DNA from: Candidatus Nomurabacteria bacterium | Lineage (GTDB): Bacteria; Patescibacteriota; Minisyncoccia; Phycocordibacterales; UBA9973 | Length of the DNA stretch: 56,600 bases | NCBI GenBank assembly: GCA_026395895.1 | Contig: JAPLXV010000003.1 | Span: 1-56,600, forward strand | Direction: 5' to 3' | Shown here: in pieces, positions 1,513 through 6,805 of the stretch | Layout of the letters: every line of letters begins with the position of its first letter | Numbering within the stretch: the first letter of the stretch is position 1 | The notes under the pieces: model-generated | Database searches by the model: none | Told to the model about the DNA's origin: nothing | Seen by the model: the letters and a program-made list of their open reading frames with translations, nothing else | Made by a program: the position numbers and the translations under genes

Positions 1513-2037
1513 ATGCTTAATAAATTCAAAATTTTTACTGTTTTTATTGGCTGTCTATTATTTAGATTGCTCCCTTTAAGAGCACCTAATGTGGAGCCGA
1601 TAATGGCTTCTATTATGCCCCTAGGACGCAAATTTGGAGCCTTGACGGGTTTTTTATTTGGCTTCCTATCTATTATTATCTATGATCTTTTTACTCATTT
1701 TGGGGCTTGGACTTGGACGGTATCCATAACCTATGGGCTTGTTGGAATAGCTTCTTTTTTTTATTTTAAAAGGTTTAAATCTTCAGCTTTTAACTTTGCA
1801 GTTTTCGCATTTTTTGCCACCATAATTTTTGATTTAATAACTGGAGTTTTATTTGCTCCAATGTTTGGGCAAACTATGCTTAATGCTTTAGTTATGCAAA
1901 TTCCTTTTACTGCCCTGCACCTAGCAGGGAATATTGGTTTTGCACTTACTTTAAGTCCGCTTATAAACAAGTGGCTTGCGTCCGAACAATTTTTTGCACT
2001 AAAAACAAGTCCCTCATTGTCAGGAGCAAAAATTTAA
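1513..2037 (+). CDS. Polytopic membrane protein of unknown function (weak DUF6580 / ECF S-component-like N-terminal motif)
   Basis: 174 aa ORF, hydrophobic throughout, with an RLLPLRAPNVEPIMA motif near the N-terminus. It lies 6 nt after ligA. Confidence 0.7.
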   Translation: MLNKFKIFTVFIGCLLFRLLPLRAPNVEPIMASIMPLGRKFGALTGFLFGFLSIIIYDLFTHFGAWTWTVSITYGLVGIASFFYFKRFKSSAFNFAVFAFFATIIFDLITGVLFAPMFGQTMLNALVMQIPFTALHLAGNIGFALTLSPLINKWLASEQFFALKTSPSLSGAKI

Positions 2038-3649
2038 TGTAGATTAAGAACATGGAGGCGTCGCATAGCGGTCTAGTGCACCATCTTGGAAAGGTGGCAG
2101 ACCTGAAAGGGTTTCGAGAGTTCAAATCTCTCCGCCTCCGCAATTTTTCAAAAAGGGTTTCCGAATGCAAAATGGGGTCGGCGCGAAGCGCCGACACTAA
2201 TGTATTTCCCCCGCCGAATTCAGAATCCAAAAGGGTTTTCCACGCTCCGCGTGGCTCAAAAAGTACGGTTCGATCTTTAATTAAAAAGTTCGAACCGACT
2301 TTTTTAAACAAATGAAGATTTTCTTCATTTGTTTTCTCGTTTGCCAATTCCATATTGTATATATTGGCTTTTAGGAATTTGTCGGTAAGTTCGAACCGAT
2401 TATGAGATTTTTTCTCAAAAGCTAGTAATTTCTCTTTGAGAAGCTGTTTTGAGCTAACCAACTTGTTTTTAGATTCGCGATATTCGTCGAGTGAAAGTGC
2501 ATTTTCAAGATAAGCGTTCATCAGCTTCTCAACTTTTGAATCCAAAAGAGAAATTTCATCTTTTGTTTTTTGAGAAAAAATCTCACTCGATTGATTTTCT
2601 GATTGTCGGTCTTTCTCATTTTCGACAATCATCCAATTTGCCCAATCGAGTGGCGAAGAAACTTTTTTGATTTCTTCCTTAATTTGAGAAGTGATGATTT
2701 CCTTACGAACATATTTTTGCAAACAAGGATTTTTCCGTTTGGTACAGCGAAGATAATTATGACCTTTTTGTGTTTCGGTAGTTATAAAACATCCACATTC
2801 TCCACAACGGAAAAATCCTCTATACAAAAATGGTTTCAATCCTTTGCTATGCGGTTTAGATTTTCGGCTCATCACTTCTTGAACAGAATCAAAAAGTTTC
2901 TTTGTGATAATCGGCTTGTGCTTTCCTTCGTATATTTCACCACCATATCTCATCAAGCCAGTGAATATCGGATTTCTCAAAATTTGTTGGTAGTTGGAAA
3001 CGGAAAGCACCTTTCCATTCTTTCTACTCAATCCAAGAGCGTTAAACTTATCGTGGAGCTGTCGCAAAGTGAAATTTCCAGTTGCGTAGGCCTCAAATGT
3101 TTTCTTGATTAACGGAGCAATATTTTCATCTGGTACTATTCCAGCACCTTTCACATTTACATAACCCAGAGGCGACATTTGAGGCCATATACCGTCTTTC
3201 ACTTTGTTTCTGTGCCCACGCTTGATATTCTCACTCAAATTGTCCACATAGTACTTGGATTGCGAAAAAGCAATGGAAAGCATGAACTTACCTTGTGGAG
3301 TTGTATCACACCAGAAAGTTGGAAAATTAAGCTCGGCAATTTTTCCCGTATCGAGCAAATATATTATCTTTCCACCATCAACAGAATTACGAGCAAGGCG
3401 GTCTGGATGCCACGCTAAAATTCCACTTGCCTCATTTGCTTCGATACGGAGAAGCATTTCATTAAATACTGGCCGACCCGGAGCTTTAGCGGTTTGTTTC
3501 TCCACGAAAATATCTACAACCTCAATTTGTTCTTTAACCGCTAACTCTTTGAGTTCGGCCAGTTGGTCTGAAATGCTTCTAACTTGCCGATCTTCTGTGT
3601 CGGTAGATTTTCTAGTGTATATAAAAAATTTTCTAGTTTGGTTATTCAT
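1961..3649 (-). CDS. Large serine recombinase (integrase); ORF reads through attL and antisense to tRNA-Ser
   Basis: N-terminal resolvase motif IYTRKSTDTEDRQ..SISDQ, a recombinase domain, a zinc ribbon (CGECGC...LRCTKRKNPC) and a coiled coil. There is no stop before 1961, so the last ~100 codons come from the X arm, the tRNA antisense strand and the 3' end of the preceding gene. Confidence 0.9.
   Translation of the reverse strand: MNNQTRKFFIYTRKSTDTEDRQVRSISDQLAELKELAVKEQIEVVDIFVEKQTAKAPGRPVFNEMLLRIEANEASGILAWHPDRLARNSVDGGKIIYLLDTGKIAELNFPTFWCDTTPQGKFMLSIAFSQSKYYVDNLSENIKRGHRNKVKDGIWPQMSPLGYVNVKGAGIVPDENIAPLIKKTFEAYATGNFTLRQLHDKFNALGLSRKNGKVLSVSNYQQILRNPIFTGLMRYGGEIYEGKHKPIITKKLFDSVQEVMSRKSKPHSKGLKPFLYRGFFRCGECGCFITTETQKGHNYLRCTKRKNPCLQKYVRKEIITSQIKEEIKKVSSPLDWANWMIVENEKDRQSENQSSEIFSQKTKDEISLLDSKVEKLMNAYLENALSLDEYRESKNKLVSSKQLLKEKLLAFEKKSHNRFELTDKFLKANIYNMELANEKTNEENLHLFKKVGSNFLIKDRTVLFEPRGAWKTLLDSEFGGGNTLVSALRADPILHSETLFEKLRRRRDLNSRNPFRSATFPRWCTRPLCDASMFLIYIKFLLLTMRDLFLVQKIVRTQATCL
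2054..2140 (+). tRNA. tRNA-Ser (anticodon GGA), no encoded CCA
   Basis: Acceptor GGAGGCG/CGCCTCC. Anticodon stem CCATC/GGTGG with loop TTGGAAA. Long variable arm. T arm GAGAG-TTCAAAT-CTCTC. Discriminator G at 2140. Confidence 0.9.
2144..2257 (+). repeat. X arm (P' arm of the att site), diverged inverted repeat of 3671-3784
   Basis: Collinear with the reverse complement of 3671-3784. Both encode EPRGAW....GGN...ALRAD....SE.LFEKL and keep the hairpins CCACGC-GGA-GCGTGG and GTCGGCGC-TTC-GCGCCGAC (CGGCAC-TTC-GTGCCG in X'). Confidence 0.75.
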
Positions 3650-3670
3650 ATTGTTGTATTGGCTAGCGAG

Positions 3671-3784
3671 GAGCCACGCGGAGCGTGGCGAATCCTTTCA
3701 GAATCAGGATTTTTTGGGGGGAATTCAGAACAGACGGCACTTCGTGCCGATCATTTTTTTGGTTCCGAAGCCCTTTTCGAAAAA
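3671..3784 (-). repeat. X' arm, inverted copy of the X arm
   Basis: See 2144-2257. It abuts core TTGCGG at 3785-3790. Confidence 0.75.
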
Positions 3785-3790
3785 TTGCGG

Positions 3791-4016
3791 TATTCATTGT
3801 ACAAAATTCGAACCTTTTTTGAAAGCAATCCTGATGAAGAAATCTGAAACAATGCGGACGAAGTTTTGCGGAAACAATTTTCTGGGGAAAGGATTCCGCA
3901 AAACTTCGGCTGATTCCTTTTTTCTGAATTCGGATGTCGCAAGCGGAGGAGGAGGGGTCTGGGGAGGAATCCTCCGCTTGCTCCTCTTTTTGTTTTGGCA
4001 AAATTCGGGCGGGCTT
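3791..4016 (+). repeat. Y arm: 226 bp inverted repeat, near-identical to 6046-6271
   Basis: I count 4 mismatches against the reverse complement of 6046-6271. Perfect internal stems CGAAGTTTTGCGGAA 3859-3873 / TTCCGCAAAACTTCG 3894-3908 and GCAAGCGGAGGA 3939-3950 / TCCTCCGCTTGC 3970-3981. Confidence 0.9.
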
Positions 4017-4032
4017 CCATAAAAAATACAGA

Positions 4033-4061
4033 TTGATAAAATCCATAATTTTTGCTATCAT
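4033..4061 (+). promoter_or_regulatory. Candidate sigma-70 promoter for the element cargo operon
   Basis: TTGATA 4033-4038, 17 nt spacer, TATCAT 4056-4061, about 60 nt upstream of the XRE gene. Confidence 0.35.
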
Positions 4062-4120
4062 TGTTTTGTGAGCAAAGAAAGTAATCACTCATAAGATAAT
4101 ACTATCAAAGTTTGGATACT

Positions 4121-4318
4121 ATGGCAACTATATCAGAAAACATAAAACGAATACGAACAAAACAAGGATTGACGCAAGACGACTTGTCGAAGAAAGCGGA
4201 CATCAAATACTCTACCCTGACAAAAATTGAGGGTGGCGTCGTTACCAAACCAAGCGTTCAAACAATTCAAAAAATCGCCAAGTCGTTAGGCGTTTCCATT
4301 GAGGAATTATTAAAATAA
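4121..4318 (+). CDS. XRE-family helix-turn-helix transcriptional regulator
   Basis: NIKRIRTKQGLTQDDLSKKADIKYSTLTKIEGG..KPSVQTIQKIAKSLGVSIEELL is a classic HTH_3 pattern. ATG at 4121 is preferred over the TTG at 4112 in the track. Confidence 0.85.
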   Translation: MATISENIKRIRTKQGLTQDDLSKKADIKYSTLTKIEGGVVTKPSVQTIQKIAKSLGVSIEELLK

Positions 4319-4329
4319 CTTAAAAAATT

Positions 4330-4941
4330 ATGTATATACCACTTTGGATAATTGTTATCGGTGTCGTCGTATATTTCTTTTGGGCTAAAAACAAAAAAGA
4401 AAAACCGGAACACAAAAAAGAAGCAACCCCGCCTTTAAATGACAAAAGAACAAGTTTGAATCCTTTATTTTCTGAAGAAGAAATAGCTCGCAAAAAAGAA
4501 ACCGCAGACAAATGGCAAGAATATGTTGTGCAGTATTTTGATGAGTTGTTCAATCAAGAAAAAAAAGAAGTAGAAGCTCACCAGAAATCTGGTAAAGATA
4601 AGGACACTTTCAAGCCAAGTGAAAAACTTATAGGCATTATTCAAAAACAATCAATGTCATTATTGGGACGAAATAATGCAATGAAAGATTATCGAAAAAT
4701 GATTGAATCCAATATTGCTATTATTAACGGAGGAGAAATTGAGAAAGTGGAAAAAACATATTGGGATCAAATGTGCCATATTCCTTACGATAACTTTGAC
4801 ATTATTTATAACCCCGATATTTATTTGGACGATAAAGAAATGAAGGAAATGTACAATAGCAATATGGAGCATCGCAAGAAATTCTGGAAAGACAGTTGGG
4901 ACTACATTCTTAAAAAAGAGTATGTGCAGAAAGAAGACTAA
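4330..4941 (+). CDS. Hypothetical protein with N-terminal transmembrane anchor (element cargo)
   Basis: 203 aa ORF with N-terminal IPLWIIVIGVVVYFFW, then a charged K/E-rich region. I recognise no family. Confidence 0.6.
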   Translation: MYIPLWIIVIGVVVYFFWAKNKKEKPEHKKEATPPLNDKRTSLNPLFSEEEIARKKETADKWQEYVVQYFDELFNQEKKEVEAHQKSGKDKDTFKPSEKLIGIIQKQSMSLLGRNNAMKDYRKMIESNIAIINGGEIEKVEKTYWDQMCHIPYDNFDIIYNPDIYLDDKEMKEMYNSNMEHRKKFWKDSWDYILKKEYVQKED

Positions 4942-4965
4942 TTATTAAAATAACTTAAATACACT

Positions 4966-5502
4966 ATGGACAAAAATAATATAAAACCAAAAGAATTATT
5001 TGAGAAATTAAAATCGGTTGGATTAGCCGAAGAAGTAAGCCCATTTTTATTAAAAGGAATAGATACTCACACTGAAAAAGATAATTTGGGTGGGTATTTA
5101 GTGTTAGAAGATCTAAAAGATTTTATTAAGAAAAAACTACCGTCCCTAGAGCAAAAAATAAGTGGCTGGGCAAAAGGAGGAATGCGTTCTTATACTAAAG
5201 ATGAGTTACTTGCATACGAACAAAGCAAGGTGCTTATTGATTTGCTTGAATCAACGGGTGGAAACGGCGAAAAACTTAGGGAATATTGGTTATCACATTG
5301 TCCAACACAACACAAAACAATCAAGGAATCAAAATTGTTTGACTCAAATAGTGAAGAAACAGAAGTTTTTGATAAAGTTCTTGGAAAAATCGTGAAAGAT
5401 GGTGGTGACGAAAATGATGAGAATTTTTTAAAGGAAGTTGAAAAGCGTTTGGGACACCCAATCAAAAACTTTTTTGATTGGTCGCTTCCTAGCGAAAAAT
5501 AA
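4966..5502 (+). CDS. Hypothetical protein (element cargo)
   Basis: 178 aa ORF on the same strand and tightly spaced. I recognise no family. Confidence 0.6.
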   Translation: MDKNNIKPKELFEKLKSVGLAEEVSPFLLKGIDTHTEKDNLGGYLVLEDLKDFIKKKLPSLEQKISGWAKGGMRSYTKDELLAYEQSKVLIDLLESTGGNGEKLREYWLSHCPTQHKTIKESKLFDSNSEETEVFDKVLGKIVKDGGDENDENFLKEVEKRLGHPIKNFFDWSLPSEK

Positions 5503-5503
5503 A

Positions 5504-6040
5504 GTGGAATTTTCAGAAATTCTTAAAAGTATAGAAAGTAAGTCTACTAAAGCAAACCATGAGTTGATTTGGGCTTATTTTTTTATTTTTCACTTAAACA
5601 AAGAAAAATCTTTTGACTATGAAGTTGAGGAAGGTCCAAATGACTTAACCGATGTTTATGCAAAATCTAAAAGCGAAAAGTTTCCAGTTTTGAAATTACA
5701 ACTTACATGGGCAAAAGAAAAAGATTTCAGTCCTAAAATAGTAATTAAGGATTTGAAGTTTAGTACAGAAATTATTTTAGAAGCCGTTAAAAGAAAATAC
5801 GAAAAGTATGAAAAACAAGGTAAAGCGGATTCACTAAATGAAATAATTCTTGTTATACAAGGCGACCTTCCAAGTGGGTGGGATGATTTAGTTGATGATA
5901 AAAAAATAAAAGAAGAAATTGTAAAATATCCTTTTCGTGGAATTTATTACATTACTCCACCTGGAACTAAATCATCCTTGAAAGATAGAACGCCTATTAT
6001 GCATAACGGATTCGTTCTATGTTTCAAGGAGGCATTTTAA
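5504..6040 (+). CDS. Hypothetical protein (element cargo); start uncertain (GTG 5504 or ATG 5438)
   Basis: The ORF is open over 5438-6040. GTG at 5504 lies 1 nt after the upstream stop, whereas ATG at 5438 would overlap by 65 nt. Confidence 0.55.
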   Translation: MEFSEILKSIESKSTKANHELIWAYFFIFHLNKEKSFDYEVEEGPNDLTDVYAKSKSEKFPVLKLQLTWAKEKDFSPKIVIKDLKFSTEIILEAVKRKYEKYEKQGKADSLNEIILVIQGDLPSGWDDLVDDKKIKEEIVKYPFRGIYYITPPGTKSSLKDRTPIMHNGFVLCFKEAF

Positions 6041-6045
6041 TTTAT

Positions 6046-6271
6046 AAGCCCGCCCGAATTTCGCCAAAACAAAAAGAGGAGCAAGCGGAGGATTCCTCCC
6101 CAGACCCCTCCTCCTCCGCTTGCGACATCCGAATTCGGAAAAAAGGAATCAGCCGAAGTTTTGCGGAATCCTTTCCCCAGAAAATTGTTTCCGCAAAACT
6201 TCGTCCTCATTGTTTCAGATTTCTTCATCGGGATTGCTTTCAAAAAAGGTTCGAATTTTGTACAATGAATA
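6046..6271 (-). repeat. Y' arm, inverted copy of 3791-4016, abutting the attR core at 6272-6277
   Basis: See 3791-4016. Confidence 0.9.
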
Positions 6272-6307
6272 CCGCAAATGGTTTTTTTATGCTAAAATTG
6301 TAGGTAT

Positions 6308-6805
6308 ATGGAACAAAATAAAAACTTGGGTTATATTTTAGGATTATTAAGATTAATAATAGGTTGGGTTTTCTTGTGGGCTTTTATTGATAAATTATTT
6401 GGTTTGGGTTTTGCCACAATAGCTGAAAAATCTTGGCTCGCCGGAGTTTCTCCGACTGCCGGATTTTTGCAATTCGGCGTGCATGGCCCTTTTGCCGATT
6501 TCTTTCACAGTCTGGCTGGTCTTCCGTTGATAGATTGGTTATTTATGCTCGGTTTATTATTTATTGGCGTTTCTTTGATGTTCGGTATTTTTATGAAGCT
6601 AGGTGGTTTTTCCGGAATAATTATGTTGGTTCTTATGTATGGAGCTCTTGGATTATCTCCGGCTAATAACCCACTGATAGATGAGCACATCATTTATATT
6701 CTAGTTATTTTTGTTTTGATGATGACAAACTCCGGACAATATTGGGGTTTTGGTAAATGGTGGGAGGGTACTTCTTTTGTGCAAAAATATAAGTTTTTAA
6801 AATAG
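6308..6805 (+). CDS. DoxX-family membrane protein
   Basis: LGLLRLIIGWVFLWAFIDKLFG motif, four hydrophobic segments, 165 aa. Confidence 0.8.
   Translation: MEQNKNLGYILGLLRLIIGWVFLWAFIDKLFGLGFATIAEKSWLAGVSPTAGFLQFGVHGPFADFFHSLAGLPLIDWLFMLGLLFIGVSLMFGIFMKLGGFSGIIMLVLMYGALGLSPANNPLIDEHIIYILVIFVLMMTNSGQYWGFGKWWEGTSFVQKYKFLK

Follow-up and report, generated by a model that had tools for sequence, protein, structure and literature searches.

A two-module serine-recombinase element at tRNA-Ser in a Candidatus Nomurabacteria contig, with an inverted attP probably retained between its modules

The DNA analysed here (56,600 nt; hereafter the window) is the whole 56.6-kb contig of an NCBI metagenome-assembled genome (MAG) labelled Candidatus Nomurabacteria. 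Between a tRNA-Ser gene and the gene for a DoxX-like membrane protein it carries a large serine recombinase (LSR, or serine integrase) gene and a small set of cargo genes, each enclosed by its own pair of inverted repeat arms. We consider it probable that the two units together form an integrated, non-viral, two-module LSR element that inserts at the 3' end of tRNA-Ser genes, keeps an inverted attP-type attachment (att) site between its modules and belongs to a very large family of the Candidate Phyla Radiation (CPR)/Patescibacteria, a group of ultra-small bacteria. About 160 related loci were compared overall, and the classification of junctions took in 81.

Results

Organization of the element

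Two long inverted repeats frame the element. The first (I2, 2138-2257/3671-3790; 120 nt, 74% identical) flanks the recombinase gene and consists of an X arm (2138-2257) and its inverted copy X' (3671-3790). The second (I1, 3785-4016/6046-6277; 232 nt at 98% identity, or 239 nt at 97.5% according to blastn) brackets a 2-kb cargo of four open reading frames (ORFs) with a Y arm (3785-4023) and its inverted copy Y' (6041-6277). The arms abut or overlap precisely at three CCGCAA hexamers, located at 2138-2143 (plus strand), 3785-3790 (minus strand) and 6272-6277 (plus strand). At the first of these (site 1) the 3' end of a tRNA-Ser(GGA) gene (2054-2141, plus strand, by ARAGORN; Rfam RF00005 places it at 2054-2140 with 50.7 bits) is joined to the X arm, the family-wide minimal core CCGC occupying 2138-2141. 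Site 2 is internal and inverted, and reads Y'|X on the minus strand; at site 3 the Y' arm meets host DNA.

The recombinase ORF (1961-3649, minus strand) encodes a core protein of 502 aa (3649-2144). Its matches to Resolvase (PF00239; E=1.7e-19, residues 9-154), Recombinase (DNA-binding domain 1, DBD1; PF07508, 52.9 bits) and Zn_ribbon_recom (DBD2; PF13408, 30.5 bits) all lie above the Pfam cut-offs. The catalytic motif YTRKST, with Ser15, and the zinc-ribbon cysteines (CxxC...C...C) are visible in the translation. In LSRs directionality is controlled by a coiled coil within DBD2; residues ~330-460 of this protein look helix-rich, as judged by eye only. By its domain content the gene qualifies as a full LSR. 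A sequence search of the PDB returned only a weak match to the catalytic domain, and exact-protein look-ups found neither the read-through recombinase nor the ORF spanning site 2 on record.

Conservation of the two-module layout

Homologues of the recombinase number more than 6800 (E<=1e-10), the top 120 being 75-93% identical to it. A genome scan yielded 80 loci with recombinases at 79-97% amino-acid identity, which span Paceibacterota, Nomura-, Uhr-, Moran-, Levy-, Kaiser-, Yonath-, Shapiro-, Taylor- and Vogelbacteria, Saccharibacteria and others; the few records with non-CPR labels are suspected to be mis-binned. In these relatives the recombinase gene is flanked by inverted X arms of ~120 nt, mostly 97-100% identical to each other, one upstream of the gene, between -141 and -22 relative to the start codon (as X' is in the window), and the other spanning ~110 nt at the 3' end of the ORF and reaching +9. 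The downstream X arm borders on a tRNA-Ser gene of the opposite strand and, wherever the flank is readable, a pair of Y arms (190-275 nt) abuts the upstream one and encloses 1.4-6.4 kb of variable DNA. A Y-arm pattern scan of metagenomes matched at least 120 stretches, and the 80 loci inspected from it display the same junction types, including Y arms joined to recombinases only 48-67% identical to that of the window. The two-module layout is thus the standard design of this LSR family and not an accident.

A more distant version of the design was found in L062 (9632-13144), where a second two-module unit stands against tRNA-Ala. It comprises a paralogous LSR module (561 aa, 132-nt arms), whose ORF reads into the tRNA, and a cargo module with 154-nt inverted arms and a 447-aa transporter. 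The motif GGTTCG is again offset by 5 bp, standing 22 nt from the junction on the tRNA side and 27 nt on the element side. Diverged recombinases thus share this design, which serves two or more tRNA targets.

Junction polarity and half-site types

The classified junctions comprise 69 of the tRNA|X type, all at tRNA-Ser genes (gga 22, tga 19, gct 14, cga 10, act 4, so that all five isoacceptors are targeted), 54 of the attP-like Y|X type, 30 attR-like joints between Y and other DNA, and 18 free tRNA-Ser genes followed by other DNA, which are unoccupied targets. Some 70 hits at first labelled '-|X', which stemmed from CCGC motifs within X arms, had been removed by inspection. Polarity is strict: across more than 150 junctions a tRNA or Y arm always lies 5' of CCGC and an X arm or host DNA always lies 3' of it, and X|X, Y|Y and tRNA|Y joints are absent.

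CCGC alone is common to all three site types; in the tRNA gene it covers the final bases of the acceptor stem, the discriminator base (G) and the first C of CCA. Upstream of this core stands a palindrome, TTCGAA. In tRNA-Ser arms, where it is the T-loop, it begins 17 nt from CCGC (83 of 83 arms), and in Y arms 22 nt (72 of 83); the tRNA of the window has TTCAAA 17 nt ahead of CCGC. In serine integrases attB half-sites carry the DBD2 motif ~5 bp nearer the centre than attP half-sites do, an offset that sets directionality (PMC11722253). Because the spacing of 17 versus 22 nt matches that rule, the T-arm and acceptor 3' end of tRNA-Ser are the B (attB-type) half-site and the Y arm, with TTCGAA 22 nt from the core in the window, the P half-site; the X arm supplies P'. 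Site 1 is then an attL (B|P'), site 3 an attR (P|B') and site 2 a complete, inverted attP (P|P').

The crossover is inferred to fall within CCGC, at the dinucleotide CC, CG or GC, with the dyad centred near G|C. A palindromic crossover (GC or CG, in which either alignment would be allowed) was rejected, since the Y|Y, X|X and tRNA|Y joints that it predicts are missing.

An earlier note on this DNA had described a tRNA-Ser-integrated serine-recombinase element with three CCGCAA-core sites: attL, an inverted internal attP-like site and attR. The coincidence of arm tips with cores and the three LSR domains bear out the element, and the half-site offset agrees with junction polarity on the three site types. 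The hexamer as such says less: the three copies do sit at repeat tips, but the region holds seven, and the window as a whole has 19 against 15.8 expected, i.e. no enrichment. What goes beyond chance is the placement of three cores at the tips of two long inverted repeats, an arrangement repeated in dozens of independent loci. The imperfect dyad proposed around site 2 (TTCGAAAAATTG, 3774-3785/CAAAATTCGAA, 3801-3811) is present but centred ~5 nt off the core, while a second one (GGTTCCGAA, 3761-3769/TTCGAACC, 3806-3813) is centred on it. The architecture, which the note had called unusual, is so among known serine-integrase elements but is the norm within its own family.

The extra CCGCAA copies start at 3866, 3896, 6161 and 6191, inside Y-arm hairpin stems; the CCGCAA/TTGCGG copies at 3866-3901 and 6161-6196 form the stem of Y-arm hairpin 1 in the subfamily of the window. 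These hexamers are probably not crossover sites, because other subfamilies keep hairpin 1 with a different stem sequence.

Separately, X is joined to an arm that does not resemble a tRNA in five loci (L021:9509, L022:1669, L084:9497, L085:9497 and L095:797), three of which share GGGTAC..AAC..; these arms could be unusual target RNAs or genes, or pseudo-sites.

A recombinase ORF that crosses the core, and structured arms

In every locus the recombinase ORF crosses the core. The X arm of the window encodes the last ~37 codons of the recombinase, and at the element boundary the frame meets no stop, continuing for ~60 further codons antisense to the tRNA, to 1961. Beside a tRNA gene, the ORFs of the family run 4 to 178 nt into antisense tRNA, giving ...RR.RDSN.R..., whereas beside a Y arm the protein ends in the tail R-[YC]-x-L-x-[KE]-[IV]-R-x-[FY]-F-E-x-N-P-D. 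In the window, the first ~57 nt of the Y arm encode such a conserved tail (RYSLYKIRTFFESNPDEEI, followed by a stop), in frame with X', and the C-terminus of the homologue P0071 is precisely the tail encoded at site 2. Of the top 120 homologues, ~10% have a Y-encoded tail; among the loci it is seen in L018, L028 and L083 and, in L047, at the end of the second recombinase. As the ORF crosses attP, the native C-terminus of the recombinase, a conserved 19-aa Y tail, is replaced by tRNA-antisense codons on integration.

The att sites of serine integrases are described as 40-50 bp long. The arms of the present elements, at 120-275 nt and with conserved hairpins, extend far beyond that. Both the X and the Y arm of the window contain two hairpins besides their half-sites. 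Compensatory changes support these structures: three pairs (GC, CG, AU) and zero broken pairs in X hairpin 1 among 56 arms, and eight pairs in Y hairpin 1 among 14 arms. Rfam has no family matching the X or Y arms, the tRNA being the only match. The arms show concerted evolution: identity between the two arms of an element is bimodal, ~50 loci having 97-100% and ~12 loci 74-92%.

Some hairpin loops vary on their own. The loop of X hairpin 2 is TCC in most arms and GGA or AGA elsewhere (Gly to Ser in the coding copy; alignment A3, columns 104-118), and in L027 the loop of Y hairpin 2 is the reverse complement of all others with unchanged stems (alignment A4, columns ~170-195). Loop flips with constant stems fit gene conversion between the two inverted arms.

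A candidate outward promoter in the Y arm (TTCAAA-16-TACAAT; 3823-3796 and 6239-6266) was dropped, since its sequence is not kept by other subfamilies and promoter-like sites are no more numerous than expected from shuffled sequence.

Orientation, rearranged states and module exchange

Among the loci in which both recombinase flanks are readable, 41 have the canonical order (Y|X, recombinase, X|tRNA). The recombinase is flipped, with the tRNA at its 5' side and Y at its 3' side, in L018 and L028 and probably in L091; tRNA-Ser lies at both sides in L040, L065 and L079, and a Y arm at both sides in L083. Cargo genes are divergent from the recombinase in 22 of 24 loci. Recombinase flips have k-mer support, since k=127 or 141 exceeds the 120 nt of an X arm (L018 is a k141 contig); Y arms are longer than assembler k-mers, so that cargo orientation in short-read MAGs (e.g. 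L057) is possibly mis-set. This orientation bias argues against a fast invertase switch, and equally against a circle that integrates by way of either of two equivalent attP sites, from which roughly equal orientations would be expected.

The loci with a tRNA at both sides fit the predicted product of the internal attP recombining with a neighbouring attB, in which the cargo is deleted and tRNA|X-rec-X'|tRNA remains; convergent tRNA-Ser pairs with a shared terminator occur natively at attR in L106, L158 and L174. L047 carries a tandem array, tRNA|X-recA-X'|Y-cargo-Y'|W-recB-W'|Y-cargo-Y'|host, and L071 a similar one, with paralogous LSR modules; such arrays are to be expected if a second element targets the attL of a heterologous one. 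Finally, L057 and L083 share a 2.3-kb cargo that is 98.5-99.5% identical and lies in opposite orientation, next to recombinase modules only 85% identical, a mismatch that points to exchange of recombinase and cargo modules between elements.

This variety of combinations and arrays could also be read as two transposable units with terminal inverted repeats (TIRs) standing side by side, an autonomous X...X' unit resembling an insertion sequence (IS) and a non-autonomous cargo unit Y...Y', each cut out and pasted at CCGC by the serine recombinase through binding of the two identical ends. Each unit indeed has long, near-perfect terminal inverted repeats, the recombinase unit stands alone between two tRNAs in L040, L065 and L079, and many Y-bounded metagenome sites lack a neighbouring recombinase. 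To be excised singly, however, a unit requires X|X, Y|Y or tRNA|Y joints, of which the more than 150 junctions contain none; the motif common to Y and tRNA arms, with its 5-bp P/B offset, fits att half-sites and not transposon ends; and there is no target duplication beyond the shared core. We regard this reading as unlikely.

Programmed inversion, in which the recombinase flips the cargo and/or its own gene and so alters expression or its C-terminus, as in phase variation or a shufflon, appears improbable as well. Inverted-repeat-bounded segments do adjoin a serine recombinase gene, a flip of the recombinase module would restore the conserved Y-encoded tail (present in ~10% of homologues), and rare flipped states exist (L018, L028, probably L091, and L057). 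Against this stand the heavy bias (41 versus 2-3 for the recombinase, 22/24 for the cargo), an enzyme that is a ~500-aa integrase-type LSR and not a ~190-aa invertase, paired sites that differ in half-site type (attL/attP/attR) and have in common one arm and a core of 4-6 bp, and a promoter-like site of the cargo that lies within the segment itself. Moreover, published directionality rules do not permit attL x attP or attP x attR recombination (PMC11722253). The suggestion in the earlier note that either segment could invert finds weak support in rare flips and swaps (L018 and L028; L057 versus L083), and the same counts and rules speak against inversion as a regular event. We infer that module orientation is normally fixed, the two modules being divergent, in the two-module integrated element that we favour.

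Since X and X' of the window differ, a flipped recombinase module would give unique joints there, predicted as ...CTCCGCCTCCGCAATTTTTCGAAAAGGGCTTCGG and ...CCCTTTTTGAAAAATTGCGGTATTCATTG; the predicted empty attB is ...CTCTCCGCCTCCGCAAATGGTTTTTTTATGC and the predicted circle joint ...ACAATGAATACCGCAATTTTTCAAAAAGGGTTTCC.

A further arrangement was seen in L170 (5195-5240), which reads tRNA-Ser(gga)|CCGC|38 nt|CCGC|host. In these 38 nt the beginning of an X arm seems to run, via a shared TTTCAAAAA, into the last part of a Y' arm, apparently as the deletion scar of an element.

Reproducibility of the junctions

In independent Logan assemblies the tRNA|X junction of the window is reproduced up to 2180 in at least five samples, the Y'|host junction in one (contig L001 begins at 6248 and runs into DoxX) and the cargo interior in at least six. 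The site 2 junction of this strain was not re-found independently; the same type of junction is conserved at 54 related sites. With 74% identity between X and X', the window falls into the lower of the two arm classes. Its upstream X arm is 96% like that of L027 and its 3' end 98-99% like those of L018, L022 and L023, so that the recombinase module is a mosaic of lineages; it may instead be an assembly chimera, since the samples concerned contain several related elements side by side. This explains why the Logan unitigs all stop at 2180, 30 nt past a strain-specific A at 2150. Numerous contigs of relatives terminate within arms, as expected where repeats exceed the assembler k-mer.

An assembly artefact or a functionless, decayed relic, to which the divergent X/X' pair, the mosaic module and the many contigs broken within repeats might point, can be set aside as highly improbable, given that junctions are reproduced across independent samples and assemblers, that the recombinase ORF is intact and arms are 97-100% identical in ~50 loci, that hairpins show compensatory changes, and that recombinases 79-97% identical across distant CPR lineages imply recent spread. 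None of the three alternatives fits polarity, orientation bias and reproducibility as well as the two-module element does.

Target locus and cargo

A syntenic relative, L103, has the ligase, a 174-aa protein and then DoxX (78% identical), cupin, DUF2779 and PheST, and its tRNA-Ser(gga), ending ...CTCCGCCA, is intact and element-free. In this part of L103 (3208-3645) the tRNA lies on the opposite strand compared with the window, and GIY-YIG and methyltransferase genes stand between it and DoxX, which points to a local inversion or replacement at tRNA-Ser(gga) in L103. The comparison at the tRNA-Ser locus that had been proposed for relatives has thus produced an element-free gene here, in addition to the 18 free tRNA-Ser sites. 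The attB reconstructed in the earlier note is plausible; the tRNA of L103 ends in CCGCCA and continues into a different downstream context.

On gene content, the spot upstream of DoxX (6308-6805, plus strand, in the window, outside the element in the host flank) is a variable hotspot. L099 (5560-6960), L100 and L101 encode an identical DoxX protein (P0124) with differing small gene sets directly upstream (HTH + ART-PolyVal; HTH + a 307-aa protein; 77-aa + 131-aa proteins; HTH, helix-turn-helix), flanked by G+C-rich structured DNA with no recognised Y arms. At 690-770 of the window, the ORF of the NAD-dependent DNA ligase has an in-frame, G+C-rich insert in its zinc-finger region with hairpin potential (CCCCCTCCTCCATAAGGAGGGGG...), similar in composition to the G+C-rich hairpins of the Y arms.

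The cargo of the window begins with an XRE-type HTH protein of 68 aa (4112-4318, plus strand; PF01381, E=1.3e-16), followed by three genes (203, 178 and 178 aa; 4330-6040, plus strand) with no family match. A promoter-like site (TTGATA-17-TATCAT with TG; 4033-4061, plus strand) lies just inside the Y arm ahead of this operon; it is a consensus match only, and the region has no more such sites than shuffled sequence would be expected to give. The 83 cargo proteins taken from 25 loci include HpaII and TdeIII restriction enzymes with methylases, HerA, a CBASS-type cyclase, D-Ala-D-Ala ligase (Ddl), transporters, DUF1295 and HTH regulators; conserved replication or virion genes are absent. The viral contigs of IMG/VR contain no close relative of the recombinase. 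An origin as a temperate phage or prophage was rejected on these grounds, the cargo consisting of HTH proteins together with proteins of no family or of accessory and defence types.

Discussion

A model for the element and its modules

In the model that we favour, inverted P'-type arms (X, X') bound the recombinase module and inverted P-type arms (Y, Y') the cargo module. The whole element would be inserted and lost through ordinary attP x attB and attL x attR chemistry, while the internal attP would stay a live substrate for the forward reaction, which needs no additional factor, with any other B-type site, be it a further tRNA-Ser gene or an attL belonging to a heterologous element. The outcome could be deletion or relocation of cargo, tandem arrays, or inversion of a chromosome segment, and the forward reaction together with homologous exchange in the long arms could make recombinase and cargo modules interchangeable. 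This chemistry, for insertion as for the rare rearrangements, is modelled on the known rules of serine integrases.

Several observations weigh against this reading. Free tRNA-Ser attB sites, of which 18 were seen, coexist with an internal attP in many genomes, yet only three loci show the predicted product. The near-perfect identity of arms 120-275 nt long is unexplained by site-specific crossover at their tips. No excised circle, empty site of the same strain or read-level evidence of rearrangement was obtained, and none of the loci examined, each of which has a junction with chromosomal DNA or a flank of it, looks like a closed circle. A search for a recombination directionality factor likewise gave none.

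The scarcity of predicted products means that the internal attP may be silent, or may serve in autoregulation or the insulation of transcription. Three roles are possible. The internal attP and the identical arms may be kept as a live site for module turnover; the internal attP, 141 nt upstream of the integrase start, could be a putative site for autoregulation through integrase binding; and the arm hairpins could be putative terminators that insulate the modules and the tRNA transcript.

More tentatively, one may suppose that the inverted attP is a selected design of a CPR-wide tRNA-Ser/tRNA-Ala clade, offering swappable cargo, a forward reaction launched from the chromosome, and a C-tail swap that acts as a switch of activity. 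If so, defence and accessory cassettes could be deleted, relocated, stacked and exchanged, and segments of the chromosome inverted. The CPR/Patescibacteria make up a large share of bacterial diversity and few of their mobile elements have been described. Given the restriction-modification, HerA and CBASS-type cargo and the abundance of the family, these elements probably serve as a major route by which genes flow, and defence systems are exchanged, among the CPR.

Comparison with known systems

Full-text literature searches turned up neither an account of this family nor a serine-integrase element described as retaining an inverted attP. The predicted excised circle resembles the yeast 2-micron plasmid with its FLP/FRT system, in that two unique segments are separated by two inverted recombinase targets. 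The plasmid, however, is an autonomous, amplifying replicon with a tyrosine recombinase, whereas here neither a replication gene nor a free circle was seen; amplification of the 2-micron kind was dropped for this reason, and because the orientation bias is unlike that expected of two equivalent attP sites. IS607-type elements lack TIRs and encode a small serine transposase whose HTH is N-terminal, and TIR transposons duplicate their target site. The present element belongs with neither: it does have inverted-repeat ends, but its domain order is integrase-type, nothing beyond the core is duplicated and its polarity excludes single-unit joints.

The small invertases Hin, Gin, Cin and Min, and shufflons, also have inverted-repeat-bounded segments beside a serine recombinase, with several possible in series. 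Those enzymes (~190 aa) act on identical sites of ~26 bp with an enhancer and Fis, and both orientations are common, in contrast to the integrase-type enzyme, heterotypic sites and nearly fixed orientation described here. The 'suicidal' archaeal integrases of the SSV type likewise have an att site within the integrase ORF, so that integration alters the gene; it is a tyrosine recombinase gene that is split in two in that case (PMC7253208), while here a serine recombinase has only its last ~19 codons swapped. SCCmec and its Ccr recombinases share the LSR-driven small cargo islands at the 3' end of a conserved gene and the tandem accretion between att-type sites (compare L047), but those islands rely on direct repeats and, in most cases, on a CcrAB pair, as opposed to an internal site that is inverted and attP-type and to modules that end in inverted repeats.

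The closest likeness is to the elements and prophages of serine integrases such as phiC31, Bxb1, A118/LI and SPbeta, with which the present family shares the three-domain recombinase, the short core, the hybrid attL/attR ends, a host half-site with the DBD2 motif 5 bp nearer the centre, and strict polarity. Canonical elements have attP only when free, whereas this family keeps a complete inverted attP once integrated. Its arms are hairpin-bearing and 120-275 nt long, compared with sites of ~40-50 bp; its recombinase ORF spans attP; it has no phage genes; and it targets a whole tRNA isoacceptor family. The textbook layout is accordingly broken in four ways, namely by the retained attP, the inverted-repeat ends of the modules, the attP inside the integrase ORF, and a target made of the universal tRNA T-loop motif and the Ser acceptor end. 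Such elements offer a natural system for questions of site selection and directionality, and may be a source of integrases for engineering, with tRNA landing sites that are compact and highly conserved.

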